Assembly (NCBI GenBank): GCA_964255285.1
Contig: CAXUUL010000005.1
Span: 62,001 to 88,725 of the forward strand
Reading direction: 5' to 3'
Source of the DNA: Ionaspis alba
Lineage: Eukaryota
Length of the DNA stretch: 26,725 bases
The position numbers and the translations under genes are program-made. A model generated the notes under the pieces. That model made no database searches. It saw only the letters and a list, made by a program, of their open reading frames with translations, and was not told where the DNA came from. Below are positions 1-20,638 of the stretch, piece by piece; within the stretch, counting starts at the first letter, position 1; each line of letters begins with the position of its first letter.

Positions 1-1461
1 GCAGTGAGAGATTGTAGATATGCTTCCTGAGCATGATCTCCCGGTTCCATTGGATCTATAGGAGCAGTTTGGTTCAGAGATGCCAGAATATTCCCTGCCT
101 GCCCATTGAGCTGCTGACTTGCCGCCTGACCGGGAGTCGAAGTATCAGGCGTCACCATGCACGAGAGGAATGCTAGCCTGTAGGTTAAGTCGCGGACTCC
201 CAATGCTTTAAGACCGGTGACTCCACTTCCTCCGACATCTCCACCGCGAGGAGCGTTCCGATTATCCCGAGTAGCTTCTGGCCGTACTCCAGGAAGGCCA
301 AGCTGACTCACATCGGGTACGACGATTAAAGCTCCCGTGAATACGCATTTCTCTCCAGCCTTGGCGCGGTCGACAATTTCACCTCGAAGGATGACGTCCA
401 TGGTCCGTGGCATACTTCCTGTGGGGATCTCGGAACTATTTTCTTGGATACGCACTTTCTGCCAGTCTACGAACGTGCTCTGTCGAATATCTAAATGCCA
501 TCCCTGTCGATTCATACAGGTCAAGTTCGGGCATTGCGTTGGCTCAGTGTATCGGAAGATCTGCTCAACATTCTTGATCACAGCACGACAGTTCTCGCAG
601 ACAAAAGTGGCGAGATAGAGCTCAGGTCGGACTTCTGATGTACGAGTCACCGTCCCAGAGATTGACAAGAGCTTTCCAATCGATCCTGTCCGCAGTTGTC
701 GTATTCGAGAGACTAGCGGCAGGTTGTAGAAAGCTAGTGTAAAGAGCTTGTCTGTCTGCTGATTCGTTGTCTTTTCCTTGACGGAGTCCACCTGACTACT
801 CATGCCATTGCCTGCAACAGAAGAGTTCGCCTGGGATGATGTGCTTGTAGGCTGCCGATGTTCTTTGAAATACCGCGGCTCGTACTTCGCGATGAGAATA
901 TGAAGCGCCTTGGTGAGAAACGGGAGAAAACGATAGTAGCTGCTAGCAACAGCGTTGGCGAGCACTCCCTCGTTAGATGACATGAGGTGTTGGAAGTCGA
1001 CATATAGAGTGGATAGATTGTAGATTCTTAAGCCGTTTATTTGCGCGATATAGTACTTATCGCTTGTTACAGCACTTGAGGGGGGCGCGCCAGAGGAGAA
1101 GGGCTCTTCAATGAAGCTGATGCTGTCAGCGAATGCTCCAAGTACATGTCAGTGAGGCGTCATACTTTTCGAGAAAACCTCCAAAGACATCTGCCACTCT
1201 CTCGCCAACTTCATCCGTCACGGGCGGGATGGCGCGGTCCATTGGGCCGCGTCGATTACGGTCGGTGCCTTGTGTTCCCACAACTTCGTCATCTAGAAAG
1301 CCTTCCATATCCGAGAGATGGCCATTGCTTTCAGAAGGGGGCGCCTGTGGGCGCGGGGTACTATTTCGAACACTGGCCAACTTAGGTGTTCCTTTTCGTG
1401 CTGCGCCATCTCTGAGACCCAGCTTGTCGCTGCTCAGAATGACATCGGCGAGGGATGACAT
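1..1461 (-). CDS. MCM6: DNA replication licensing factor Mcm6, N-terminal part (runs off the window start)
   Basis: ATG at 1461; exon 1461-1166, intron 1165-1117 (GTATGA...GCTGAC...CAG), exon from 1116 onward. Translation includes KYYIAQINGL, LYVDFQHL, IGKLLSISGTVTRTSEVRPEL, Zn-finger C-x2-C...CPNLTC, FVDWQKVRIQENSSEIPTGSMPRTMDVILRGEIVDRAKAGEKCVFTG and GVTGLKALGVRDLTYRLAFL, all typical of Mcm6. Confidence 0.96.
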
Positions 1462-2009: not shown

Positions 2010-5000
2010 TCATGCCGTGACTACCCCCTCACTCAGCCATAGTCTAACACCCTCTCTCAATGCCCCGCCTTCAGCTCTTCGCCCATCGCGACCTTTACCC
2101 TCTCGGACACCCTCAGTAACCACGCTCCGCACAATTTCCTCCAATGCGCCAAGAACAACACGTCTGCATTCCTCGTGCGGGACTTCAAGAGCCGGAACCG
2201 GACCATCAGTGGGAGCACGCCGAATACTTGCGGGCCGTGAGAGTGAGAGCGGCGCAGCACCGAGGGGACCGCTGGCGAGACCCCTGGTGGGGGAAGGTGG
2301 CATTCTAATGTCCTTGTCGACGCGATTAGGAGATGGGGCACGAGAAGGCACACGAGAGGAATGACCACTTTGAGAAAGAATGCGCTCGAGGGCAGTCGTG
2401 AGTATCGGATCCGAGTCTAGGATCTGATCCTCAGCAAACTTTAACTCGAAAACCTCATCGTTATGCTGAAAGTCAGAATCATGGGTGATTGGAACTGTGT
2501 TCTCGGCGAGTTCTTTGCGTAGACGTCGTTGAAGGCGGAGCCGGTAGATGGAAAACGTTGCCGTGTCTGCAATGACAGTCGTGCTGATATCAGTCCACTT
2601 TCCATTGGTGGCAGGAAATTCCTTGGAGGTGGATGGATGGATGAGACGAGCTTCGGCTCTCATAGATAGCTTGATCTCCTGTTTAAGAGCTTCATAGGGC
2701 CGGACAGCTTGAAGAGAGAAGTCGGGATGATATCTTTTGAGCCATCCGGCCACATCGATAGTTGGCTCGGATTTGTTGCGCGGGGAATCAGACGTTGACG
2801 AAAGTCCGTAAGGGGAGAAATGGCCATTCGGGCTTCCCGCAATGACATTTTGGGCACGAGAAGAGTTGTAGGATGATGTTAGGGAAGACGAGAACGAATG
2901 GGTGCGTGGTAGATCAACATCAATGTAACCATCGTCTTCGTTTACCGATAGTTTAAGCGGCATACGCTCCATTCTAGTTCGCCGAGGGATGCTTCTCGCA
3001 GCCGAACCTCCATCCTGATCTGTTGGTTTTAAGCAGTCTTCGAGCGCTGGGTGACTTGTTAGGCCGCTAGTAGATGAATTCCCATTTCCGTCCACAGTGA
3101 GCGCTGCAGCCTGTTCAACCATATGTGACAATCGTGTGGTTGTTGGCGATCTTTCCTTGTCCTTTGGAGCACGAGTGTCCGCGAGAGCTTCCTGCGAAGA
3201 CAGGAAAGCATCACTTTCATCTGTCGAAGACCCTCGTCGGTTGCTCCAAAACCCACTAACCATACTACCCCAGCGTCCGCCTCCGGAGCCGCTGGTACTT
3301 AGAGCAGAGCTTTCGGACCTTTTGAGCGTATGTGTCAAAGCAATAGATGCCAGACTGCCGCTGCTTCCTGGTCGTTGCACGCCCGCGGTTCCTGGTGGCG
3401 CTTGGGTTGACAGGTTTGAGAAATGAGGGGTTGGCAGCGCAGTATCCGCTATGATGGTTGAGGTCGAGGACTTACGCGTATCGCCAGCGCGAACAGGGAT
3501 CGCTAGTGATGCGCTTCTGATAGATCTTGCGTCTGAAGTGCGTCTGGCAAGGGCTTCGGGCGCGAAGTCGTTGTTTTCGGATTCACCGCCACCAGCACCA
3601 ATGAGCGAGAAACTTACGGTTCGTGCATGATCGCTGGCGTTCGTACCATTTCTGCGGGGGCGAGTGGTATTGACCTCTGTAGCCCTAGATAGCGATTGAT
3701 CACGAATCGGGGGAAGTGACGAGGGACTCTCTGAGTATTTCATGCTTGGATGAGACGAGAGGGGGAGCTGGGATGTTGGAAGCGAGACGCAGCCTGGAAT
3801 AAATGTCGAGAGCAGAAAGATCAAACGTCTGGCGGCCATTTTGTCGCAAGAGACGATAACTGTCCGCTGTTTGATATGGTTCTCGTCTTTACCCAAATCT
3901 TTCAATTGCGCACGGCGCCGCCGATTCTGCGCTGGTGCGATCGAGCCTAGCCAAGAAGTATGATTTCCGAGAAATGTGGTAAGAAAAGCGAAAAAGAACG
4001 TAGTCTGCTCTCTGTCTCCTGCCCAACGTCCAATCCAGCGTGCTTCCTCCCTCCAGGCACCCCATCGGGCTTGGCCAGTCACCACTCTACGTGTTCTGAG
4101 CCCACCGACGATCCTCTGGCTTGTGATGGCAGTCTCCTTCTGGATGATCGCACTTTCTTGAAGACACCCAGGCATGACATGGATGCTTTGTTGTGTAGGC
4201 TGCTTTGGCTTCTTGAATTTCGTGCTTCCAGATCTTGCCGGCGGCGCAGCCATCAGAGGCGCAAGTGGGGTCGAATGCTCCAAAACTGTTCGAAGCGTCC
4301 TGCTCGCAACGGCCTCCAGTAGTTCTAGTGCTCTACTGACCACGTTCCAGTGAGTAAGTATGTGAGAGATGTGGAGATTCAACACAGTATCGACCCCCGA
4401 AAGCGATGCAGTACTCCGCGCCTCCATGAACCTTGCGAAGACACCGTGTTCGGCGTGCCATGACGTCGCAGGTGTAGAGTCATTGTAAGAAGAACCCAAA
4501 GATGATACGCCATGATGAGATCCTTGAGAACGTAAGCGAGGTTGTGAACCATCTGTTGGAAGTTGGATAATGACCGCGATCGCATACATGGGGACCTTCT
4601 TCTGTTTGACGACTTTTCTGCCACTCCCGTTGTCGAACAAATCGTCGTCCTTGGCAGTGGGATCCGAGCCATGGTTTTGATCCATCTGATCCGGTTCTTG
4701 TGCCACTTCCTCGGCATTCGGTGACACGGATTCAGGCAAGTGAACGGAGAAGAGCCGGGTAAACATGATCGAAGGCCTAGAGTACTGACTTGTTCGATTA
4801 TCCGTGTAATTAATCTCTTCTTTGGACAGGTCGGCTACACTGGTAGACCGAACGAGAGGTGTTCGCTTCCTCGTGAAACCGCCAGATGATAAGGGACGTG
4901 CAACATTTGGACTTCTGTTGCCACTGTTTAGAGCGTCAGGAGATTTTCTCGGAACAATATGGAGCTTTGTGCCTGGTTCGATCCGAAAGCCTGGAGCTCC

Positions 5001-5666
5001 AAACATACAACCGAGGAGTGCCTCGGTATCTTCCTTTCCCTCGCGTGCAACCTTGCCCTGGGCTGTTTCCAGATCATTTGCAGATTGTTCAAGCGTCGCA
5101 GCTCGAGATCTCGTATCCCCCAATGGACTTCGGAATCGATACTCCGGTGAGCGAGGAGATATTGGTGAGAGCGGTTGGATCTGCGAGCTTTGGAAGATAG
5201 ACGATTGCGGAGAATGGAAACGTCTGGAGGGAATTGTGGCCGGGCTTCGATTGCCTTTCCCACGCGAGGGCATTCTGAACAAGGAGCTTGAAGCTTCTCG
5301 GTCCTGCTGAGGACTACCGTTTCGGGAGGTGGGTATATTCGGAGGCGGCCTTGAATCATATAGCACCTGTGGTTGTTGATACCGAGAATTGACATCTTGT
5401 GCTATGATGATCCGTATATCTGCAGGATACGCAACATCAAGACCACCTCGATCATCGTAGTTTGTAGCTTCTCTTGCGTTCGATGGGAATCTGGTGTTCT
5501 GGGCCAATGACACACTGTAGTGACTAATCCGTAGAGAATTGCCATCGGGGTAGAGCAAGTCCCGCGTATGAGCATCCTCGGTCACAGATTCGAGTGGTGT
5601 CTGCGGTCGCGAAGAGCTATGCTGGCTGAAGGTAGACGCAGCGCTCTGGAGCAGGCGGCCGATCAT
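2010..5666 (-). CDS. Folliculin-interacting protein (FNIP)/Lst4-like protein, ~1218 aa, apparently single exon
   Basis: Long uninterrupted ORF; first ATG at 5666 (MIGRLL; the track start at 5696 is GTG). Motifs recalled from fungal FNIP_N-containing proteins: DIRIIIAQD, LLGCMFG, TKLHIVP, MFTRLFSV, MYAIAVII, RTVIVSCDKMAARRLIFLLSTF, VAGWLKRYHPDFSLQAV. Confidence 0.8.
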   Translation of the reverse strand: MIGRLLQSAASTFSQHSSSRPQTPLESVTEDAHTRDLLYPDGNSLRISHYSVSLAQNTRFPSNAREATNYDDRGGLDVAYPADIRIIIAQDVNSRYQQPQVLYDSRPPPNIPTSRNGSPQQDREASSSLFRMPSRGKGNRSPATIPSRRFHSPQSSIFQSSQIQPLSPISPRSPEYRFRSPLGDTRSRAATLEQSANDLETAQGKVAREGKEDTEALLGCMFGAPGFRIEPGTKLHIVPRKSPDALNSGNRSPNVARPLSSGGFTRKRTPLVRSTSVADLSKEEINYTDNRTSQYSRPSIMFTRLFSVHLPESVSPNAEEVAQEPDQMDQNHGSDPTAKDDDLFDNGSGRKVVKQKKVPMYAIAVIIQLPTDGSQPRLRSQGSHHGVSSLGSSYNDSTPATSWHAEHGVFARFMEARSTASLSGVDTVLNLHISHILTHWNVVSRALELLEAVASRTLRTVLEHSTPLAPLMAAPPARSGSTKFKKPKQPTQQSIHVMPGCLQESAIIQKETAITSQRIVGGLRTRRVVTGQARWGAWREEARWIGRWAGDREQTTFFFAFLTTFLGNHTSWLGSIAPAQNRRRRAQLKDLGKDENHIKQRTVIVSCDKMAARRLIFLLSTFIPGCVSLPTSQLPLSSHPSMKYSESPSSLPPIRDQSLSRATEVNTTRPRRNGTNASDHARTVSFSLIGAGGGESENNDFAPEALARRTSDARSIRSASLAIPVRAGDTRKSSTSTIIADTALPTPHFSNLSTQAPPGTAGVQRPGSSGSLASIALTHTLKRSESSALSTSGSGGGRWGSMVSGFWSNRRGSSTDESDAFLSSQEALADTRAPKDKERSPTTTRLSHMVEQAAALTVDGNGNSSTSGLTSHPALEDCLKPTDQDGGSAARSIPRRTRMERMPLKLSVNEDDGYIDVDLPRTHSFSSSLTSSYNSSRAQNVIAGSPNGHFSPYGLSSTSDSPRNKSEPTIDVAGWLKRYHPDFSLQAVRPYEALKQEIKLSMRAEARLIHPSTSKEFPATNGKWTDISTTVIADTATFSIYRLRLQRRLRKELAENTVPITHDSDFQHNDEVFELKFAEDQILDSDPILTTALERILSQSGHSSRVPSRAPSPNRVDKDIRMPPSPTRGLASGPLGAAPLSLSRPASIRRAPTDGPVPALEVPHEECRRVVLGALEEIVRSVVTEGVREGKGRDGRRAEGGALREGVRLWLSEGVVTA

Positions 5667-6428: not shown

Positions 6429-9400
6429 TTAATTCTCTGGAAGTCCTCCATTGTTCTTGCTCTCCCTAGCAAGGCTCAATTTCGCTCTCCCACCGCCAGC
6501 CGATTGCAATCGAGAAGCCGGCGAGACATCTCGCAGGCTCAAAGCAGGAGGCGGTCCCAGATTCGTCATGGTACTTTCAGCGGGTGGTGTGCTGGGAGCT
6601 GTCGTGATGGTTTTGTTCAAGACTTCGTCGTAGAAGGAATCCAATGCCTTGATATCGTTGCAAAATGCTTCCAGGTCGTAGGCAATCCTTTCAGGGGTCG
6701 TGATATTCATCTGCGCGAATCCCGGTCCTACATCTGGCGTTGCACGGATCAAGGGTGAACTTTGTGGTGACGCTCTGGGAGTCGCTAGATACGGATTGCC
6801 GTCGTGTCTGACCGGAGATGCTCGAGACCCGTTGCTGTGCTCGTGCTGGCTAGTAATTAGCCCCCGGTTTGCTTCTCGAGCCGCTGCACTCCTATTGTTA
6901 TAAAGCCTATTGGCAAGGAGCAGGAAATCACCCTCGTCTGTAATCTGCGCAAGAAGAACTCCTTCTCGAGAAACATATTGTGTGTAACAATAATCAGGTT
7001 TGCCCCATGAATACGTGACGTCAACGGAAGGTGGGAAGTCTTTTGCTGCTTCCAAGTCGAGAACAAAGTTGTGCTTCTTTAGTATCGCTTTATGATATGG
7101 AAACTCGGACATGGCCTTGGGGGTGAGCGAATTGGCATCAAAGTAATTCTGTGGCTCTTTCTCCGGCGGCCATTTCGCAAGCTTGACCATGTAAGGAGCT
7201 CTGAAAGGATGAATCTCGTTGATCCTCGAGGCTTCGCCTATTGGGAGTTCCACCAACCTGAGTCCATAAGACTCGGCTGCTGTAGCCCATGTGACAATTG
7301 CGTCTTCGATCAGCTTGGGTGTCACATTCAACCAGTCAATTCTGAGGTGATAGCAATCATCAGCAGATGAGATCTTGTCGTAGTGGAGGTTGATAAGCTC
7401 TCTTCGGTATGACCGTTTTTTGTGGTCCACATCATAGATCAGCCTTTTCGAGAGGGTGACCCCGAGCCTTGGTTTGGCCTTCGGGGTTTGTAAGCCTTCT
7501 TCCATACGTTCATTGCTGGTCGAGCTGGACTGAGAACCGGGAAGGTCGTTGTAATTAGTCATCATAGACTCCGCCACGGGTGTCGATGGCACAGACCGAT
7601 CATATCTTCGACCACCGAACCAAGTGTTCCGTGACTCGGGCCTTGGGAGACGGTAGTCCGTCGCAATCTGGTAAAAGAAGTTGCCATCACGAAAGTCGTG
7701 TCGTTTCTCCACGTGCTGGAAAAAACCTCCCTTTAATAGCTCTCTGCCGAAGTCCACCGCTTCTTCCCTTGAATCGATGTCCTTGAAATTGTTTAAGAGC
7801 CAAGTGGTGAGTTCGAATCCGATGAAGCAATTATAATGCAATCTCCAATGCCAACGTCGGTCCATCATTTTGATACCACGATCGCTCTGAATTGTCTGCG
7901 CAAGAGATCTCAAGTTTAAGTTCGATCGCTCAAACAAATCGTTGTCAGGCAACAGGTGGGCAGGACGGCCGTCTTGAGTATCATTGTCCATCAAAAGAGT
8001 TTCGCTCATCTCTGCTGCTACGATTGCGGAAGGATTCCTTGTTTGGTAGATGATATCTAGTGGATTTGGGTCCTTACTTTTGCGAACTGAGCCCTGGAAT
8101 CGACGCTCATCCAATGGTGCAAATCTGTACCTATTGAACAGCTGAGTAATTCTGTGAATGCCCTCAAGCCGGATTTCTTCTTCGTTGTCGTTGCTTGTAG
8201 GTCGTAGCAACCGCTTGCTGCTGATGGCACCCTCGACGGGTAGAAATACGAAGCGTGCGCGCCAGAAATGGAGCGATTCGGGATATTGGTCGGCGTGTTG
8301 CTCCTCGTGACCAGCTATGAATGTATCGAGCCTTTGCCAATCATAACGTTCGCTTGACAGAGCCAGCTTTATCGACCGCACTTTATACTCTCCGCTCAGT
8401 GTGGTTTTCACGCTCGGCTGGTAATGCACGAATTTATTATCGGGCTCAGCTGACGTAACGCTTGACAGAGAGCGCCTGAACTGTTTGACCTCGACTGAGC
8501 CTTCTGCGAGCTTTGATAATTGATGAATCGTATTGCCTTTGGACATGTACAGCTTCGTTCTTGGCAATCCATCATGTTCCACGCCATAGATTTCAATTAG
8601 CTCAGGTGCGGCCACGCCTGTCGCTTCGGAGAGCCGTGCTCCCACCACAAATTGGAAACCACGGGACAGCCGAGCACTTATAAGCTCACTCATGAGCCAT
8701 CCATTATCTTCTGTGATATCATGTTGAATCCCGGGAGAAACTTTGTATTCGCTGGATTGGTATTCAACCGGAAAGTCGTCAGGAGAAGGAAAGTCTTCGG
8801 TCGTCAACGGTACCGAAGCTGGAGAGCACAGAGACTTCCATTTGAGCTTGGAGGCCCGCAGCGTGTAAGGGAAGACATGATACCACCGCCCAAGCCTACG
8901 AGTCGGGTCCGTAGAAGTTTTATGTGGATTTGAAGGATTCAAGACTGTTAGCCAAGGGGTCGTGGCCTTGTTGGGCGGCAAGAAAATGGAATCTTCCGCT
9001 GGATGCGTGTCGAGATGTTCGTTGGACAGGTCGTCCTGTGTGCGCAAATTGACATCGTTATCGTCAGCGCCTAGTCGAAGGCTCGTCCTTGGGATTCCGC
9101 TACGGTTATAAGGAGATCGAATAGAGATTGGCTTGGATGCCTGTTCCAGCACCGAGCTTTGAAGCGACGACATCTTGGGCCCCACCCTTTCACGTTCATG
9201 ATCGGATGATAAGCTTTCCTCTGCCGATTCCGGCAAGATTGACTGTGCAAACTGCTTCTTTGCGACATCTCGGGACTGAAGACCACGGGTCAGCAGCGAT
9301 GTTGATTGTGCAGTCTCAGAGGACATTTCTGCGACGGCTGTGGCTTTGGCGGTCATTCCTCCGAAACCCCGCAGACCAAAGCTGATCTGCCGTGAGAGGT

Positions 9401-11973
9401 TCCTCGGCTTCGTTTTCGATTGAGATGGACGAGCACTCGAAATGCTCTTGGCAATGCTATTTTTCGTTTCTCGAGCGCCTAACTTTACTCTTTCCGTCTT
9501 CATAGCCTGATCTTCTCCATAGCCATTGCTTACTGAGCCAGTCACGGGTGTCACTACTTTGCTCGATGAGTCGCCACCGTGCTTATGAATGTTATGGAAG
9601 CCCGTCCTTGTTATACTCTGCTCTTGTGGCAGTGCTTGATGCAAAGCCTTTCGACGTTGAGGATGACGGAAAATAAGATCGTCGTGAGTGTCCATCCAGC
9701 GTATGAGAGAACCATACCGCTTCATCGTGCTGGCTTGGTGTGGTGACCTCGACGATGACAATGAAGGCGCTGGAGAGTTCTTAGAATGGTCTATGCCTGA
9801 TCCATGCATTTCTAGCGATGCGCTTAGACTCGTGGTCGAATGCTGGGCCCTGAAATGCTTGTTCTTTACTCTCGCGGAAGGGCCATCGGGCAATCCGGAG
9901 GGCTGTCGATACATATACGGTATTGATATGTTTCTCATTTCGTTCTCCATGATGCCCATCATCTGCACCTCATACATTCTGATTCTCGGTACAAAGACAT
10001 CGCGTTTCGATGGGTCCGAGGTTCTCTTGGAAAATGTCGAGGTATTTGTAGTATGACCTACACCGTCGTCCATCGAAGCGGTCCAGAATGATATGTCCAC
10101 CCACTGAGGCATAGCATAGAGCCAGTGGTCTTTGTCAAAGTCTCCTCGATTCATCTGGTCTCTTGAGAAGCTACTCTTTGGTTCTGAAAGCTGGGATGTA
10201 TTGATGGAACTATCGAGGCTGCGGAAGCTTCCTGCTTCATTGGGCTGAACGTGTGAAATTTCGGCTTTCGCGTTGTCCCTCGGACGTGCTGCATGATGCG
10301 TCGGCGCCCTGTACTTGAACAAAGGAACGGAGTGTAAGGGTATCCTCGAAAGACATATCAGATCTATCCCGATACCATTTTCAATCAGATTGTCGGTTGT
10401 GGTGATAAGTAAATTGCGATCTACTTCGAATACACCTGTGCCTGGAGTAATGATGACTATGGAAAGCCCAGTCCTTACGAGGTCACGATCGATATAATCC
10501 TCTGAGAACTGGGATGATGCAAGATTGATAGCCTCCAGAACATTGCCTCGTATTGCCGGGGTCGGAGTCCCAGCGATGATCTGGACCGGAGTGTCTTGAG
10601 GAATAGAAATTCCTTCTTGAGCCCAAGGGACATATTCATTCGAAGAAGCCTTACAGATAGACACATCACGGAGGAAGACTTTGAACTCCTTCTTCAGCGA
10701 CCTCAGAATGGCACTCCATTGACCAGAAGCCATATCGCTTACAACGACTCGATAGAAGTCCTTGTAAGGTGTCTTGTTCGTGGGCGAGTATCCACTTGCA
10801 TTGTGAATATCCTCGTTTGACCTTTCAAAGTCCAACGACAGCCGCCTTTCATATTGCAGCCTCGTGAAGAGGATGATACTCACCAGATGTCGAGCGCCGA
10901 TACTCTGCCAGCGCTTGAAGAGCTCCGGAAGGAAGCCATTGATGACCTTGTGGAACATGATTTCCCCTGTGCCGTCGGTATCGAAGTCCCACATCTCCTT
11001 GGACATCTGGATGAAGAGCACGTAGCGAGCAGACTCACTCCGGAAGATCGGTTTCGTCGTAGGATCAAAGAACGCGGACTGTGTCTTTTTGCTTTGGATA
11101 TATATTGTCTTGACCTCTGCTTTGATAGTGCCCAAAAACAGGACCTTTTGTCCCTTGTAGACAGATTTGTTGGCCAATTCGGAAACGACCAATCGCCACA
11201 TATCTGCTCTAGTCAGGTAGGTATCTTTGAACGAGACTTCCACATGTGATGCCGAGTGGGAGCTTCGCTCGATCTGACTACTGATCAGCCTCGACATACA
11301 GGGAAAACTACGGGACTTTCCGAGTCGCTGACTTCAGTGACCATGACCTGAGTGCGATTCTTGAACCCAAGGGCAGAGGCTATCTTGTGCGAAATGGACA
11401 CCTTGCAAACTATCAGCTACTCATCAGTCCATACATATCTGAAGCAGACCTCGAGGTTTGGGTGCTTGGCCATAGAGTCAGAGTCCATTTCACCAATGGT
11501 GAACACGAGAGTAGGACAGTGCGGAGGTCTGTCTTCCGATCTAGCTGGGCAAAGTCAATTGGGAATAAGTAGTTATGTTGTACGGACGACCCACTTGATG
11601 TTCTGCTGCCCTGACTAGGACGTCCGCTACTACGACGCCTAGGGTGCATGGTTGGCGACTCCATTTCAAGGGCCATGATCCGCATTCGAGTGCCGACAAC
11701 CACGTTTTGGCCAGCAAACAGGGAGGGATTGACAAGTACATCGTCCTTCGCAAACGCTTCGTCATGAAGACCTAAAGTGCAGATGACCTTTTCTAAAGAA
11801 GCATGATGTTCTATCCAAGGAGACGTCTCATCAGTGTGAAGTGTTTGTGCATCCCGTTCGGGTTCGCTCCCGGTAGTATGATTCAATGCAAAGCTCCCTG
11901 TTGTGCCCTGGCGAAATTGAGATGCTCGGAGAGTGTTTGCACGGGAAGATCCCACCATCCCGTTTGTAGACAT
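6429..11973 (-). CDS. IML1: Vacuolar membrane-associated protein Iml1 (SEACIT/GATOR1 subunit, DEPDC5 orthologue)
   Basis: Exons 11973-11595, 11544-11450, 11401-11333, 11273-6429 with GT-AG introns of 50, 48 and 59 nt (start ATG could be 11973 or 11958). Motifs: FRSESARYVLFIQMSKEMWDF, GNVLEAINLA, YIDRDLVRTG, GIGIDLICLSRIPLHSVPLF, KWKSLCSPASVPLTT, RLSRGFQ; DEP domain DRRWHWRLHYNCFIGFELTTWLL...FFQHVEKRHDFRDGNFFY. Confidence 0.95.
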
Positions 11974-13525: not shown

Positions 13526-15684
13526 ATGCGTAAGTCAAGCGCCACCGGATCACTTCTTGCGAAGAATACTGTGTTCATTATATATCTCGATTTGATACTG
13601 ACCGCAACGCTGCAGACAAACTCAAGACTACTGCTAGGCATCATGCTTGGAATACCAGCGGCACTGGCACCAATTACAATCCCTTCGGCAGAGTGCGTTC
13701 AAGGTCTAGCCAGATCGCAGGTGGCGAGGATGTCGAGCGAGGTATTACCGACAGACCACTTAATCATGGCGACACGTTTCACTCCGAGAACTGCGTGGAG
13801 CCGGAATCGGAATCGAGGCGGAGATCGCAGTATGGGGAGGATAACATAGGTCCGACACATGCCAATACCATGCCAGTATCCAGAGGGCAAGATAGAGGAC
13901 TGAATGCAGTTGACCCTCCAATCGGCGGGCGACGAAAAGAGAACAGCGAGGAATCGAATGCTCAGACGAGTGATACCCTGGTCACGGACGACTTGCCCCA
14001 AGCCAACGGACACCCAAGTCAGGGCAAATTCGGGGGAATCCTGGGCAAGATGCATCTAAAGAAGGATAAGAAAGAGAAAGAAAAGGCTGAGCCCGCACGC
14101 TCGAATACTTCTGGCTCGAAACGCAAGTTCACCCCTTGGAACCAGATCCAGGCGACGCTGTTCAACTCGTGGATCAATGTTCTCTTGGTTGCCGTACCTG
14201 TCGGCATAGCCCTTCATTTCGTGCCAGGAATGAGCAAGGTGGTAATCTTCGTTGTAAATTTTATCGGTGAGTTGGCCAGTTTCAGAATGAAGCAAAAGCG
14301 ATCCTCTGCTAATATCCCCGAAGCGATCATCCCGTTAGCGGCTCTTTTATCGTACGCCACAGAGGAGATCGCTCTAAGGACATCAGAGGTTTATGGAGGA
14401 CTACTCAATGCTACATTCGGGTTTGTGCTTCTTTCCAAAAACGAAAATTGCTGTGATGCTAACACTGCGCCAGTAATGCCGTCGAACTCATCGTATCCAT
14501 CATTGCTCTGGTGAAGAATGAGACGATAATCGTCAAGACTTCTTTGATCGGCAGCGTCCTCTCAAATCTACTTCTGGTGCTTGGAATGTGCTTCTTCTTC
14601 GGTGGCTTGAATCGAGTCGAGCAGCACTTTAATGTGGTCGTGGCCCAGACTGCTGCAAGCTTGCTAGCCTTGGCCATCGGTGCCCTCATCATCCCCACGG
14701 CATTCTTCATATCAGGGAGCGGCAAGATCGAGAACATCGATGCTCTGTCTCGAGGAACGGCTGTCCTTCTACTCGTCGTGTATGGGGCGTACCTTTTCTT
14801 CCAGCTCAAGACTCACGCGATCATCTACAATAAACCTAGCGAGAAAGCCCCTAAGCGTCGAGTCAAGACGGAGAAAGGTGATGCTAGTAATCGCATTGCC
14901 CAGATGGGTGCCAATATGGCGGGAGGAGGCGCCGACCAAGAAAACTTCATGCACCAGGATGAAGAGGAAAAGGAGGAACCAGCTCTATCCTTGGTGGTGG
15001 CACTGATAACACTAGCTGGCTCTACCGCTCTTGTTGGGTAAGTTTACTACCCTTTTCTGCCTGTCAACTTTTGCTGATCAGACCCTTTGCTAGTGTCTGT
15101 GCCGAGTTTCTAGTCGACAGCATAGACGCCATCACTGCAAGTTCCGGCATTTCCAAAACCTTTGTCGGTCTTATCCTCTTACCGATTGTCGGCAATGCAG
15201 CCGAGCATGCTACTGCTGTTACTGTTGCCATCAAAGACAAGATGGATCTTGCCATTGGTGTAGCCGTAGGCTCGAGTACGAATCTCCTCCCCCTCCCCCA
15301 ATACTTCAATACTTTGTCCTGACTCTCTACAGGTCTTCAAATCAGTCTCGGAGTTTTACCCCTCAGCGTTGTGCTTGTGGGTATCCTCATCATCTGGCAA
15401 TGTTCTTGTACTGATTTTACATGCTAGGGCTGGATAATTGGTCGACCGGACATGAACCTAGAATTCGACGGCTTTCAGATAAGCGTCCTCTTCGTCGCCG
15501 TGCTTTTGGTGAATTACCTTATTGCAGACGGGAAAAGTATGTGATCACCACACCAACCAGCCTACATGTAGTGATACTTGGCTAACCTATACTTTCTTTA
15601 GGTCATTGGCTAGAAGGAACACTGCTCAGCGTTCTTTACATAATCATTGCGATTGCTGCTTGGTTCTACGACAGTGGTCAATAG
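13526..15684 (+). CDS. VCX1: Vacuolar Ca2+/H+ exchanger (CAX/Vcx1 family)
   Basis: Exons 13526-13529, 13616-14266, 14324-14420, 14474-15037, 15094-15275, 15333-15376, 15428-15536, 15602-15684, all with GT-AG introns keeping frame. Alpha-1 repeat [37 protein letters not shown], acidic linker, alpha-2 repeat [38 protein letters not shown]. Confidence 0.95.
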
Positions 15685-16083
15685 GCGAATTGACATGGCA
15701 GGAGTTCTGGTTCTCGGGCAAGGTGGTCGGATTTGACAGATATTGGTAGGCCATGTTGCTTCGTCCACTATTCACATTGACAGAGATTCAATTCAGAGAA
15801 AAATCTCCAAAGCATTGTCTTTAGTGCCAGGGTTTGCCTCTTAGAGGCCATCAAGTCCCATTCATGTTTGATATCACATAACGAGCTTGGCATAAATTTG
15901 ATCACAACTTTGCATCAGCCATACACCTAGATTGGCAATATACCAAAGCTCGACGGGCTTGAGAGAGAGACTTGGACCAGAAAGGTGCCGTGAGAGTTTC
16001 AGACAGATTTTTTGAATGCTCCCAATGCCTCCAGACGAGCACTTTGGCCCTCCGATCTCTGAAACCCATTAGGATCGACTTCA

Positions 16084-16657
16084 TCAAGATATGGATGAAA
16101 GAAACCTACAGGCGCCCGTCATCATTCTCCGAATCTTTGACGCAGTCCACATATCTCTTTGCTGAATGGTGGCGCGTCCATCGTGTTTGCAGCATAACAT
16201 AGCCACTATCCTGAATTTAATGCTAGGCCATTCTGAGCGGTACAAGGCACTTACTCTCAAATTCGCTCGCGATAAATGCTTCTGTCATCTCCTGCAAAGC
16301 GCTTATAGCAATTGCCTGGAACTTGATGTCGCCACTGAAGTACGGATTGTCTCCGACGATTCTGTTTGCGATCTCACGTACAAGGCGCTGGAAAGGGCGC
16401 TTTCTGAAAACGACAACTGTTATGGGAATCAGCATAAAAGTTGCGTATAAGAGTGATCCTCAGACTGAGTTCCACGTACCTTCAGAACTAGTACGAGCTG
16501 ACTCTACTGGTCGAGTCACTCGCATTCTCACACCCTTGCGTGCCATCCTCGCCGCTACTACTTTGCGTGAGCCCTGAACACGACTAGCAGGTCTCGAGCT
16601 GATCTTGCGAGTAAGAGCGAGCTTTTTTGCCACGCGCATTGTTTCTTGAAGAGCCAT
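16084..16657 (-). CDS. Divergent histone H3-like protein (153 aa)
   Basis: Exons 16657-16480, 16416-16255, 16205-16084; introns GTACGT...GCTGAT...ACAG (63 nt) and GTAAGT...ATAG (49 nt, weak branch site). Histone fold: RKRPFQRLVREIA, DIKFQAIAISALQEMTEAFIASEFE, LCCKHDGRATIQQRDM...KIRR. Basic tail with SRKVVAARMARKG resembling H3 PRKQLASKAARKS. Confidence 0.85.
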
Positions 16658-17319
16658 CTGCTTTGATGCAGAAGTAGCAGTGATGAGTATGGGTTTGTTC
16701 GTATGATCTTTGAGAATCAAGTCCTGTAGCGATGGGAAACCCTTACACCATACCAAAAGGCGTTAGAGTTTCGCTAACCCTAACTATCACCAGCTCATCA
16801 AACCTGACTCACCAAGCCGGTGTGCTGTCTAGGTAATCTAATAGTAAATGAGTTATTGGATGTGACCAGGAAATTCTAATTTCACCGCAATGATACTTCG
16901 CGGAAAATCACAATCTGAATGACAAAAACAATCGAAAAGCTTGGCAAAAAGTTACATCTTTATGGTTGTGTCGATTCGTGAGCTTAGATATCTAAACGTT
17001 CTCAAGTAGACGACGCGCGCCTCGATGCTTTATGGTCGTATCAATCTGTAAGCCCTAACCTCACTCCCGGTGGAATGCGTTGACCAAGATTAGAGGACAA
17101 AGCTCATCGATATATCGAAAGGGGCCGAAGCAGTTTAGAGACATCTTTTCTAGCCACCAATTCAAGTGCCGTTGCCAATATGCAATATCTTGCTTTCAGA
17201 GCTCCTCACTACAGCCAAGATCAAGAATGTTTCACGAGCTGAGGGCTCTCTTTCCCTTTCCCATCATGGCATCTGAATCCCTCTTGTCAGTCTCTTCAGC
17301 TACATCTCCACTGCTAGAA

Positions 17320-20183
17320 TCAGTAGTCATTACTGCCGACTTCTTCATCGATATCTCTCCAAAGTGGAACACCATCCCCTTCGTGCGTCCCCTCCTCTAC
17401 GCCCTTCCAAAATAGTTCTTCTGGGACAGGGTAGATGAAGTCTTCCTCATCACAATATGGGAACGTGACTTGATCGTTCTCATGCCTTATAAACGCCGTC
17501 GCAGTTAACCGACATGGTTCTGCAAAAACCCATGCCCGAAATAGCATAGCTTCCCGCAATAGCAATCCGCTTTTATGAGTACGTTTGTTTCGGGCGGCAG
17601 GCACCTCCGGCAGGATGGCTCGCCGGCGAAAGTCACTCGCTAGGTGCCATAAGGCTTCCGGAGTAGCGCAAGTGTATTGACGGGAAAGGTTCACGCCAAA
17701 ACTGAAGAGGTGGAAGAAGGAATTGAGGATCTCGAACACTTCGTCAACGACGCGGTGCTGACACGCCCACATGTTATGGTTACTGATCACCCAATAGCGC
17801 AGATTGCCGTCTTCTGTAGCTTGGTCATGGATGGAAGGCAGGAACAAGGGAGCGTGACCTGCTGGGGGTGGCCGGTGAACCGGGATCAGGATGGGGGACG
17901 AAGTGAAATGAGCCGGGAGATCGGAATGCGTCTGAGGCAGGCTATTGAGGATGAGCTCCTCCACGTCGTGCGGTATAACCATGGGTAACGTGATTTGTTT
18001 TTCCATGACCGTCCTTAGATCAGGACCATGTACTTGGCGGCGGATCCGGCGCGTGAGATAGTCTCTGTCTATACCCGGGTTAGTACGAGCTGGAGAAATC
18101 AAACAGATAAAATATAAACAAGTCTGTGCAGAAGGCTTGTCGACTCACAGCCAGAACGAGCGTTGGGGATGGATAGGCGTCTAGAGAGGGCATTTTTGAG
18201 CAATCCAAACAATCGATCATCTTCGTGGATCATGCGATAAGCGAACGCATCTGTATTGAAAGATTCGTTCCATACATAAGTGAATGGTTCGTCGTAGGCT
18301 CCTACTTCAAAATATAAGGTGCTGTTTAATAGAGCCCTGTTTAGTCTAGACAGAAGTTTCAGCCATGCTTTAGCGAAGTAGCAAGGTGAACTAGATTTGA
18401 TAACTCACGTAACTTGACCATCAGCATCCAATTCCCAAGCCTTACAGTGCCTCATGAACAATTCAAATTGCCCGAGACCGCCAAATCCATCAGGCACGTT
18501 CCTACGACCACGTCGCATGTCTAGGTTGGTAAGACTGATCGATGGAACCTCGGTCGAGTTGCCTCCGACTTGGAATTCCTCCTTTCCGGTCTCACCGTCG
18601 TTGTTTTGCAACGGGAGGTCTTGCGTGGTTCGCGATCGAGAGTCGCTGCTGGCACGACTTTTCCCAGCTATTTCCGTGACTTTGCGAAGTGGAGAATCGC
18701 CGAAACAATAACGGGTGGTAAAGTCTTGCCCAAGATATGCCACTCTTTTCAAGGTCTTCAATCCAGGTTCGGATCCTTCTGGTCTCCTATAACTTTCCTG
18801 ACTACCGAAAGTCTTTCGAGGTATAGTCAGAGAAAGAGGCCTGGAGACCGGCTCCGATGACGATCCTGCCCAGCTGTCATCTAGAAAATCGATTTCCATT
18901 TGCTGGGAGTTGGCGAGCTTGAAGAAAGGAGTTTCGTCTTCCAGAGACCTCGCATAGGATGGCAGGATCCTCAGACCAAATCCACGATCTGCATATTTGA
19001 ATACCCGTGTCTCTCTGGTGGCCCGGCGATCGCCCAGGTAATGCCCCCAGATAAGGTCCATGGTGAAGACCGAATAACCGGTCTCAATGGCTCGAGCACA
19101 TCGCGGGAGCATCAACACCTGCTTCCCGTCAAAGCCAACGGCACATGCATCGAGATCGAAGTTCAGTAAGATCTGGGTCGGCGATGGTAGAAGCTTAAGT
19201 ATGATCTGAATACGACGGTTGGGATAGTCGGCGAGAAAATTGATAGTCCTCGCATTCTTGACCACCAATCTCTGCTTGTTTGTTGCTGGTAGGTTGGCGA
19301 GCCATATATCGTATATCTCCTCAACCTTTTTGTTAGCTTGGTCAGCATCAAGGCCATAGAGGTAGAGATCAATGTCGCCATCCTTGATTGTCTTGTCATC
19401 ATCCTTGGATGGATCTGTATGCATCAATGTTGATAGGACAATGCCACCTGCGACAAAGACGTTAGTCCAATCGAGCCCTGTCAGAATTCCGTTGGTTATT
19501 CGCTCAAAGGTTGCAGCGAATGCTGCACTGTGAGAAAGGATCTCTAAGTTGCACGGGCGACGACGGTCGAGTAATTCAAGTCCTCCTAAAGGTGGGTTCG
19601 TCCTCCTGAAGGAGACGATATCTCCATAATCCTTGTTCACAGTTTCGAGGAGCTTCACAAGTTCTTCTAGGGTCACTAGATATTTATGGTCCATGTTGTC
19701 CTCGGCTGATCGCGACCGTATGTACTTCTCGTTGACTAGGACTGCTTCGTCAATATCCTGAAGGCTAGCTAAGCATACGTTTTGGTATCCGGAGTGAGCG
19801 GCAGGTGTCCTCTCTCGCAGGAACGCTCGGAGTACAGGATACGGCGTCCGTTCATCTCGCAAGATCTGACATAGTACTGTCGCTGGAAGGTTTCTAGAAA
19901 TGGTCCTGATATCACTCTCGCGGTTATCGGAGGTCGCCAGTATTTCGTGGATCTTGCCGATTGAGATGGTTGTAAGTGGGGGGACTGCTCTTGCACCTCC
20001 ATCTCCATGGTCATCACGAGAAGATGAGTACGACGCAAGCCGAGACTTAAGATAGCGCTCTGTCAACGAAGACACTGTCCAGTCAGTGCGGTAGATGAGA
20101 TTTTCAGAACGTCTGGCTTCTGCGAGATCAAATAGCCATGCACGTGTGAGGAAGTCTGGAAGATCCTCCAACTCGTTATCCAT
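17320..20183 (-). CDS. Uncharacterised ~906-aa protein with a Pol-beta-superfamily nucleotidyltransferase-like domain
   Basis: Exons 20183-18409, 18345-18149, 18068-17320 (GTGAGT donors, TAG acceptors, frame preserved), joining two ORFs of the track; start codon uncertain. Motifs LDWTNVFVAGG...DGDIDLYLYG (GG + DxD), RIQIILK, NFDLDACAVGFDG, RVFKYADRGFG. Confidence 0.8.
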
Positions 20184-20638
20184 GCCTACTGTGAACACCG
20201 TAGTTGGAAAGGATAATGTTGAAAGTGATGGTATGAGATGGAGACTTGCAGCAAAGGCACGAGAGTATGTTCAGTGAGTTGGGAGTGCGGAAGGAAAGAA
20301 AGATCTTGAATCTCCATATTATGTACAATATCACGAAGGCTCCCATCAATGAAGATTATGACTAACTGTAAGTTAGACATGCATGATCTGAGTATCTCTA
20401 GGCATCCGACACCGCTCTATACGTGTCGTTTGTGCTTCACTCTTTGCTTGCACCATGATAGTGAGTAACTAGTAGAGGCATGCATAGGGCTGTAGGGCTG
20501 ATGTTGCCTGTCAACATTTCTCAATTCCAGCAAAATAATGCTCATACGCTTTTTGACGACGTGTTCCTTGCTGTGTTCATACAGCGGGTGTCCCATGATG
20601 CAAGGAGATTTGTCTTCTAGGAGAGTATTATGATTCCA

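Follow-up and report, generated by a model that had tools for sequence, protein, structure and literature searches.

Within a 26,725-nucleotide (nt) stretch of the Ionaspis alba genome (GenBank assembly GCA_964255285.1, contig CAXUUL010000005.1, positions 62,001 to 88,725), we studied a histone H3-like gene on the minus strand, at 16657-16084. Below, "the window" means this whole stretch, and positions are counted within it. The gene's three exons are spliced to 462 nt, or 153 codons plus a stop. The product is an H3-family protein that has the α1-L1-α2-L2-α3 histone fold and the H3-type α1 motif PFQRLVREI. In H3, the αN helix keeps the last turn of nucleosomal DNA in place, and CENP-A merely shortens it; in the candidate, it is not recognizable. 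Judging from its sequence, the candidate fits best in an accessory, CenH3-like family of H3 genes, in which it is a derived orphan; we call this family the EFE-Met type, a grouping made in this analysis. Its conservation is non-random. For such a derived accessory H3-like paralogue, we consider function and decay to be about equally likely.

The explanation that we favor, and to which we give slightly less than an even chance, is that the gene still makes a working fold protein that would pair with H4 and would be unable to clamp DNA ends. We infer its expression, the pairing, its deposition, and the consequences for DNA ends. In the product, a basic N-terminal domain would be fused directly to an H3 fold; the fold would retain the pairing with H4, and the last turn of nucleosomal DNA could not be clamped. 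If the protein is deposited, it would give particles with loose entry and exit DNA, a more extreme condition than with CENP-A. Without deposition, its only effect would be to tie up H4 or histone chaperones.

A natural, selected H3 fold without αN or an H3 tail would be a ready-made test of a nucleosome that lacks this clamp. A further outcome of the analysis is a small accessory family of H3-like genes in ascomycete-type fungi, with a conserved intron and motif and with some copies clustered or mutated. It is often stated that fungi lack H3 variants other than CenH3. If the candidate is only a relic, then the finding is an ordinary one: one further decaying histone paralogue. As for the proposed effect on DNA, PMC7475651 reports that CENP-A has an αN shortened by half a turn, with less tight DNA binding and, as a result, flexible DNA ends. 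Because a weakened αN causes flexible ends in CENP-A, the candidate may work similarly. The difference is that αN in CENP-A is about half a turn shorter yet recognizable, whereas nothing recognizable is left in the candidate.

An H3 fold in exons 2 and 3

Exon 2 (16255..16416, minus strand) encodes α1, loop 1, and most of α2 (..FRKRPFQRLVREIA..ALQEMTEAFIASEFE), and it is the best-conserved part of the candidate. It matches the Pfam family Histone (PF00125) with E = 6.2e-8 and 33.4 bits (the cut-off is 26.4). It also matches H3 chains in the PDB at 2.2e-7, with a 7-residue gap in loop 1. The PDB search gave 154 sequences at E up to 1e-3, and all 60 of the matches listed are H3 or H3-variant chains. 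Exon 3 (16084..16205, minus strand) encodes the end of α2, loop 2, α3, and a C-terminal extension (..MLCCKHDGRATIQQRDMWTASKIRRMMTG..), and it ends with a TGA stop codon at 16086-16084. By itself, exon 3 scores 17.2 bits against PF00125, which is under the cut-off, and exon 1 has no Pfam match.

A custom H3 profile, which we built from 14 of the search matches, gives a clearer view, and the candidate's identity as an H3 is well above what chance would give. The spliced product scores 100.8 bits (E = 2e-31) across product residues 57-143, and exon 3 is found at E = 1.2e-5 in a six-frame scan. The alignment covers only positions 51-135 of the profile, starting with SSEVVVFRK opposite KSTELLIRK. 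So the αN segment of the H3 family (TVALREIRRYQKS) was not found in the candidate, as the profile alignment begins at position 51.

The candidate can be compared with canonical H3 (PF00125; PDB 4zbj_B, 1id3_A, and 1aoi_A) throughout the fold, over which they are about 42-48% identical. The order of α1, L1, α2, L2, and α3 is the same, α1 is near-identical (RK.PFQRLVREIA), and C110, H113, R116, T118, D123, I130, and R131 are retained. The candidate differs from canonical H3 in having no ARTKQTARKS tail and no αN, and in having 7 additional residues in loop 1 (RIVGDNP, at 16343..16363 on the minus strand), as seen in HMMER alignments to the PDB H3 chains and to library representatives. Also, EFE-Met replaces LFED, HDGRAT replaces HAKRVT, and the C-terminus is 11 residues longer. 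A loop 1 of similar length is found in several unnamed long-loop H3-like proteins (P0039, P0022, and P0027), which carry a (N/K)P(Y/H)F motif.

The region before α1

Exon 1 (16480..16657, minus strand) begins with an ATG at 16657-16655 and has 59 codons, followed by one base of a Val codon that the intron splits, and it encodes the basic N-terminal region. As the initial annotation had stated, the product reads ..SSE-V-VVFRKRPFQRLVREIA across the junction of exons 1 and 2, and its central claim, that this is an H3 variant without αN, holds: the H3 profile starts at its position 51, and there is no αN-like piece in any of the six frames, with filters off, either around the gene (15600-17400) or in the whole 26.7-kb window. 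In these six-frame profile scans, only exons 2 and 3 scored, and all other pieces had E > 0.5. There is also no ARTK-like start upstream of the candidate.

The same annotation described the sequence ahead of α1 as an H3 tail that runs straight into α1, and in this respect it needs to be corrected. When we compared the 63 residues that precede R-K-R-PFQ with 8 N-termini of H3 or of H3-like proteins of the EFE type, the local alignments had z scores of 0.3-3.1. As a control, the N-termini of three Talaromyces relatives, compared with canonical H3, gave z scores of 13.7-19.1. Given the low scores of these 63 residues, exon 1 as a whole is no longer H3-like. Furthermore, R63-K64 of the candidate carry the same residue numbers as in canonical H3, which implies that the protein has not been shortened; instead, the sequence of the αN region has become unrecognizable. 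Residues 44-59 (MRVTRPVESARTSSE, at 16481..16528 on the minus strand) occupy the place of αN and the linker that follows it. MAFFT lays VTRPVESARTSSEVVVF over TALREIRRYQKSTDLII (also given as TALREIRRYQKST(D/E)L), with matches only at R49, S57, and E59 and with a proline at E50. SSEVVVF is a diverged copy of the STELLI linker.

There are two slight pieces of evidence as to whether residues 44-59 would form a helix. Their mean helix penalty is 0.60 kcal/mol, as compared with 0.34-0.40 in 7 relatives, which is weak evidence. When exon 1 alone was modeled from its single sequence with AlphaFold2, the model had coil at residues 42-59 and helices at 2-20 and 24-41, with a mean pLDDT (predicted local distance difference test) of 74; it had no control and is likewise weak evidence.

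We considered several places where αN might have gone. The first 18 residues (MALQETMRVAKKLALTRK) are not a displaced αN: their best local alignment, to the EFE-type fragment P0037, has a z score of just 0.74. It has not been "intronised" either: reading through into intron 1 gives ..YATFMLIPIT.., which is faintly like YQKSTDLIIPK, yet the profile does not reach into it. And we reject a frameshift that put αN into another frame, as none was found around the gene (15600-17400). Exon 1 has either diverged past recognition or been replaced after the ancestral first exon was lost at the conserved intron.

Relatives and the EFE-Met type

We searched 1.84 billion representatives exhaustively with exon 2, using phmmer, and obtained 67 matches. 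Another search for homologous proteins with exon 2 produced 19 candidates, none of which scored. The top match is the window's own 70-amino-acid open reading frame (ORF) fragment, with one member from one ENA contig, and the next is a canonical H3 with 56% identity and a gap at the loop. Across residues 57-139, the spliced product is 40-48% identical to all of its relatives.

What links the candidate to particular relatives is a motif together with an intron. The candidate has the motif EAF(L/I/M)xxEFE followed by Met. EAF(L/I)xxEFE-Met, along with a phase-1 intron within that Met codon, is common to the candidate and to four Talaromyces proteins: P0067 (XP_002340810.1) and P0201 from T. stipitatus, P0195 from T. 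marneffei, and P0196 from T. pinophilus. TIQ is likewise among the features that the candidate and these proteins have in common, and we also count a RR(I/M)MTG tail, which is common to the candidate and to P0195, P0196, and P0201. (More precisely, the C-terminal extension after α3 has RRIMTG, RRIITG, or RKIMN in the Talaromyces proteins and RRMMTG in the candidate.) The Talaromyces proteins are about 48% identical to the candidate over 83 residues. In contrast to the candidate, they keep an H3-like MARTK..ARK tail and an intact αN, with Pro at R63. Two of them were scored, and these have the expected residue at 25 of 25 near-invariant columns, as compared with 20 of 25 in the candidate.

The same motif and intron extend to four unnamed fragments (P0037, P0018, P0043, and P0052). 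Three of these (P0037, P0018, and P0052) read EFESK.., which is what reading through an A|GTAAG donor predicts, and P0043 reads EFESI... A scan of Joint Genome Institute (JGI) metagenomes for the motif plus the donor gave 13 stretches, 11 of which hold such genes (L001-L004, L006-L008, L010, L011, L013, and L012, which is the same contig as L011), while L005 and L009 are chance matches. Wherever an acceptor was found (7 of 7 locus models), the intron in the EFE-Met codon is 51-55 nt and in phase 1. The corresponding intron 2 of the candidate (16206..16254, minus strand) is 49 nt, also in phase 1 and in the Met codon after EFE, with a GTAAGT donor and a GATAG acceptor.

The position of this intron may not be specific to the group. 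From our reading of the fragment ends, an intron also seems to fall in this codon in two CenH3-like fragments (P0030 and P0050), so the position would not be unique to the EFE-Met type. As a side observation, the ORF fragments P0030, P0050, P0053, and P0018 imply introns before (L/F)RK.PFQ and in the codon after (M/Y/E)FE. From these sequences, both intron positions of the candidate may be old and common to CenH3-like genes.

We built a tree from 81 columns of the fold and 40 sequences: the candidate, 16 sequences of the EFE type, 8 named canonical H3s plus P0203 and P0209, and 13 unnamed long-loop H3-like sequences. (P0052, L003, L010, L012, and other representative hits were left out. For the unnamed long-loop set, "CenH3-like" is our own label, deduced in this analysis, and not a name from any source.) The tree pairs the candidate with the EFE-type fragment P0037 (support of 73.6/84), outside of the clade of canonical and long-loop sequences. 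Constraining the candidate to group with the EFE type gives the best log likelihood (lnL = -2620.9, delta lnL = 0, p = 0.71 in the approximately unbiased [AU] test), and grouping it with the long-loop set costs a delta lnL of 11.1 (AU p = 0.18). We reject a grouping with canonical H3 (delta lnL = 15.9, AU p = 0.021). In the phylogeny that the initial annotation had proposed as a check, the best placement of the gene is with the EFE type, and one with canonical H3 is rejected.

Many members have (K/R)WQ, there is a C-terminal extension, and the intron also seems to be present in the CenH3-like fragments P0030 and P0050; together, these features suggest that the EFE-Met group is CenH3-related. 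A literature search on fungal H3 paralogues gave no description of this group, and one on H3 without αN gave no paper.

The EFE-Met group behaves like accessory DNA, with near-identical copies in differing sequence contexts. The metagenome contig L011 (5187 nt) has three H3-like genes of this type, at 4685-5185 (plus strand), about 1247-792 (minus strand), and 2-220 (plus strand). A 3750-nt stretch of L011 recurs at 99.65% identity in L006:1-3750, a record from a different data set, and so resembles a repeated unit; it includes a 229-amino-acid ORF that has no Pfam family. Another copy, L013:1-1299, has 15 differences from L011:311-1609, and every one of the 15 goes the same way, G:C>A:T (8 G>A and 7 C>T). 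The changes convert ALREIRRYQKS to TLQEICCYQKS, and the pattern resembles repeat-induced point mutation (RIP) or deamination. At L004:4866-5150 (plus strand) there is a divergent copy (..LPFQRLVKDIMHS..EFE) whose third exon stops directly after RVTI and has no α3. Judging from its sequence, this copy is probably decayed.

Accessory H3-like genes are carried by transposons in another fungus. Manning et al. 2013 (PMC3538342) describe 26 H3-like (H3L) genes of Pyrenophora tritici-repentis within hAT elements of 2.3-5.6 kb, for which expressed sequence tags are reported. As in the candidate, this is an extra H3-like gene of an ascomycete with an altered tail that fits neither H3 nor CenH3, but in contrast to the candidate, H3L has YFED and keeps αN, and so we consider it to be a distinct group. 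We also reject carriage of the candidate by a hAT transposon. There are no convincing terminal inverted repeats in 14800-18400 (the best arms are 14-20 nt with 75-87% complementarity), none of the window's ORFs carries a hAT domain, the nearest ones (17320-18144 and 14463-15041) have no transposase domain, and the region is one identical contig at uniform depth. At the related loci, no hAT domain was found among the 55 ORFs that we scanned, out of 73 with at least 90 amino acids (the H3 ORFs and some overlapping ones were dropped). We also found no synteny between the window and the related loci outside of the gene.

A third case, to which we liken the candidate by description only, is in Aspergillus terreus. 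According to de Vries et al. 2017 (PMC5307856), this eurotiomycete has an additional H3 gene of sporadic occurrence, whose two introns are typical and short.

Function or decay

Several results indicate that the candidate's conservation is not random. We simulated neutral evolution of its coding sequence with substitutions only, which ignores indels and cannot exclude that the gene died recently, and at 50% amino-acid identity the 153-codon frame had survived in 26 of 2000 runs, and at 45% in 12 of 2000 (that is, in only 0.6-1.3% of simulations at the observed divergence). Also, substitutions avoid the conserved columns: the candidate keeps 20 of the 25 near-invariant columns (at least 90% conserved) versus 20 of the 46 others (Fisher p = 0.005). 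Exon 2 matches the family-wide consensus at 32 of 50 positions (0.64), which is inside the range of 12 relatives, so it is kept as well as in relatives that presumably work. Exons 1 and 2 look like coding sequence in the predicted frame only. Exon 1 has a codon score of 0.076 in that frame as against -0.43 and -0.24 in the others, and exon 2 scores 0.271, where the real genes in the window average 0.152 +/- 0.066 and intergenic sequence averages -0.212 +/- 0.148. Both introns retain their GT and AG. There is no signature of RIP in the candidate (TpA/ApT is 0.75 and (CpA+TpG)/(ApC+GpT) is 1.31).

An unrecognizable exon 1 alongside a normal exon 2 is not the pattern that uniform decay of a dead gene would give. 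Such decay also fails to explain why the identity is 0.64 in exon 2 and 0.41 in exon 3 while there is none in exon 1. Simple old decay is therefore argued against; recent or partial decay is not. The initial annotation had argued against simple decay on the grounds that the ORF and the splice sites were intact. The neutral simulations bear this out if the decay is old, but not if it is recent or partial. The frame of 153 codons is indeed open and the introns are of the GT/AG type, but intron 2 is weaker than the annotation allowed. It had also missed that the whole of exon 1 is unlike H3, that the EFE-Met relatives keep αN, and that exon 3 is the most degenerate part.

The main rival to a working protein is that the candidate is a relic: an accessory H3-like paralogue that lost its proper first exon, with the tail and αN, and has been drifting since, with a frame that is open for want of time. 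We take this to be a serious possibility, though short of a probable one. The results on selection just given count against it, including the coding statistics of exon 1, which are specific to one frame. A number of other results count for it or weigh against the working protein that we favor. The candidate is an orphan on a long branch (none of the 67 phmmer matches is an orthologue), and its exon 1 cannot be aligned. αN, as ALREIRRYQKS, is kept in all of the 13 other EFE-type sequences that show this region, and it is absent from the candidate. Exon 3 matches the consensus at just 12 of 29 positions (0.41), the lowest among 13 sequences (p = 0.06 for exon 2 versus exon 3). Its codon score (-0.117) is inside the intergenic range, and it carries 4 of the 5 changes at near-invariant columns (N108M, I112K, V117A, and L126T, in canonical numbering). 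By our own estimate, a 39-codon exon would be open by chance about 1 time in 6.

Intron 2 tells in the same direction. The relatives' introns have CTAAC or CTAAT 9-11 nt before TAG|TG in 7 of 7 cases, and the candidate's intron 2 has no such element and no CTRAY branch. There is also a competing CAG, which ends at 16211 and lies 5 nt before the TAG that is used; if it were used instead, then AGA-TAG would encode Arg and a stop, and the protein would be truncated. Furthermore, decay is visible among other EFE-Met copies, as in the copy with one-way G:C>A:T changes and the copy that stops after RVTI, and some relatives are clustered. There are published parallels as well: PMC5307856 gives no expression evidence for the A. 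terreus paralogue, and it names A. oryzae, A. sojae, and A. parasiticus as further species whose H3 paralogues lack such evidence or do not function. Finally, the one sequencing run listed consists of DNA contigs, and no RNA run was listed.

A more specific proposal is that the candidate is a working H3 variant in which the tail and αN were swapped for an unrelated, basic, and possibly helical domain, so that it would pair with H4 and form open or half nucleosomes, or else act as a regulated sink for H4 or chaperones. Its particles would fail to hold entry and exit DNA or to form the H3-H3' four-helix bundle (given L126T and I112K). We think that this is unlikely. If it is true, the candidate would be the first natural eukaryotic cellular H3 without αN, and it would have arisen in a CenH3-related accessory family.

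Less plausible alternatives

The still-working fold protein that we favor should also be distinguished from the organism's own CenH3, which could be fast-evolving and have an unusually degenerate αN. CenH3 proteins typically have an unalignable N-terminus, a loop 1 that is longer than in H3, and a C-terminal extension. The candidate resembles CenH3, CENP-A, and Cse4 in all three respects, with 7 additional residues in its loop 1. In addition, P0067, one of its relatives, is called "centromeric histone H3 htr12, putative" by NCBI; (K/R)WQ is found in many EFE-type members, as in Pyrenophora CenH3 (Table S10 of PMC3538342); an intron seems to interrupt the same codon in the CenH3-like fragments P0030 and P0050; and the AU test does not reject placing the candidate with the long-loop H3-like set, as described above. 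On the other hand, every CenH3-like sequence that we examined keeps ALREIR..YQ. The candidate has RPFQR and FQ, as opposed to RWQ or to the LPFAR of Eurotiales CenH3 (as reported in PMC5307856), and the best tree puts it with EFE-type fragments. CenH3 is an essential, single-copy gene, unlike the EFE type, with three genes on one 5.2-kb contig and two in T. stipitatus (P0067 and P0201). A degenerate exon 3 and a weak intron 2 also suit an essential gene poorly. So we consider it very doubtful that the candidate is the CenH3 of I. alba.

It is most improbable that the gene model is an artefact and that the true transcript restores αN via other exons or splice sites: although database entries for H3 without αN are often annotation errors, and the AG directly before the ATG could serve as the acceptor for an upstream exon, no frame of the window contains an αN-like or ARTK-like piece, while a conserved αN exon of 17 residues should score clearly. 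Intron 1 (16417..16479, minus strand; 63 nt, phase 1) is no source of the segment, just as the initial annotation had argued. It is too short to conceal an exon, and reading through it from exon 1 reaches an in-frame TGA after six codons (ORF 16460..16762). Its splice signals are good, with a GTACGT donor, a CTGAT branch 13 nt before the acceptor, and an ACAG acceptor, and the sequences of other H3 genes (P0053 and P0018) imply a phase-1 intron here as well. No alternative splice pattern that restores αN, which that annotation had named as a possible refutation, was found in intron 1 or in any frame of the window.

We also note that public "H3" entries that seem to lack αN can be annotation artefacts; an example is P0048, "histone H3.1, partial", from Exophiala xenobiotica. 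Predicted multi-copy H3 fusion proteins, of which there are hundreds, mostly from animal genomes, swamp the profile searches.

The surrounding locus

The neighboring PHM7/RSN1 gene has an intron with an identical GTACGT donor and with a CTAAC branch, so the candidate's splice signals suit this genome. A Logan contig from one DNA run, which may be the window's own source, has 0 differences from 15900-16900 at a depth of 123, which implies that the candidate's sequence is not a local assembly slip. Scans for Rfam families and tRNAs gave no matches.

Upstream of the candidate there is a direct repeat of 26 nt, at 16958-16983 and 17028-17053 (77% identity, 70 nt apart). It lies 300-400 nt upstream of the ATG, in what is likely the promoter. 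Farther upstream, on the same strand as the candidate, are two long ORFs that have no Pfam family (17320-18144 and 18405-20270, both on the minus strand). Two Atlas look-ups disagree on the phylum of this fungus, which is probably an ascomycete; the named relatives of the candidate are from Talaromyces only. For the ORF at 18405-20270, the nearest Atlas clusters are from Basidiomycota and carry PF26128 Gad2 (0.92). For IML1, at 6429-11333, the nearest Atlas cluster is from Ascomycota (0.93).

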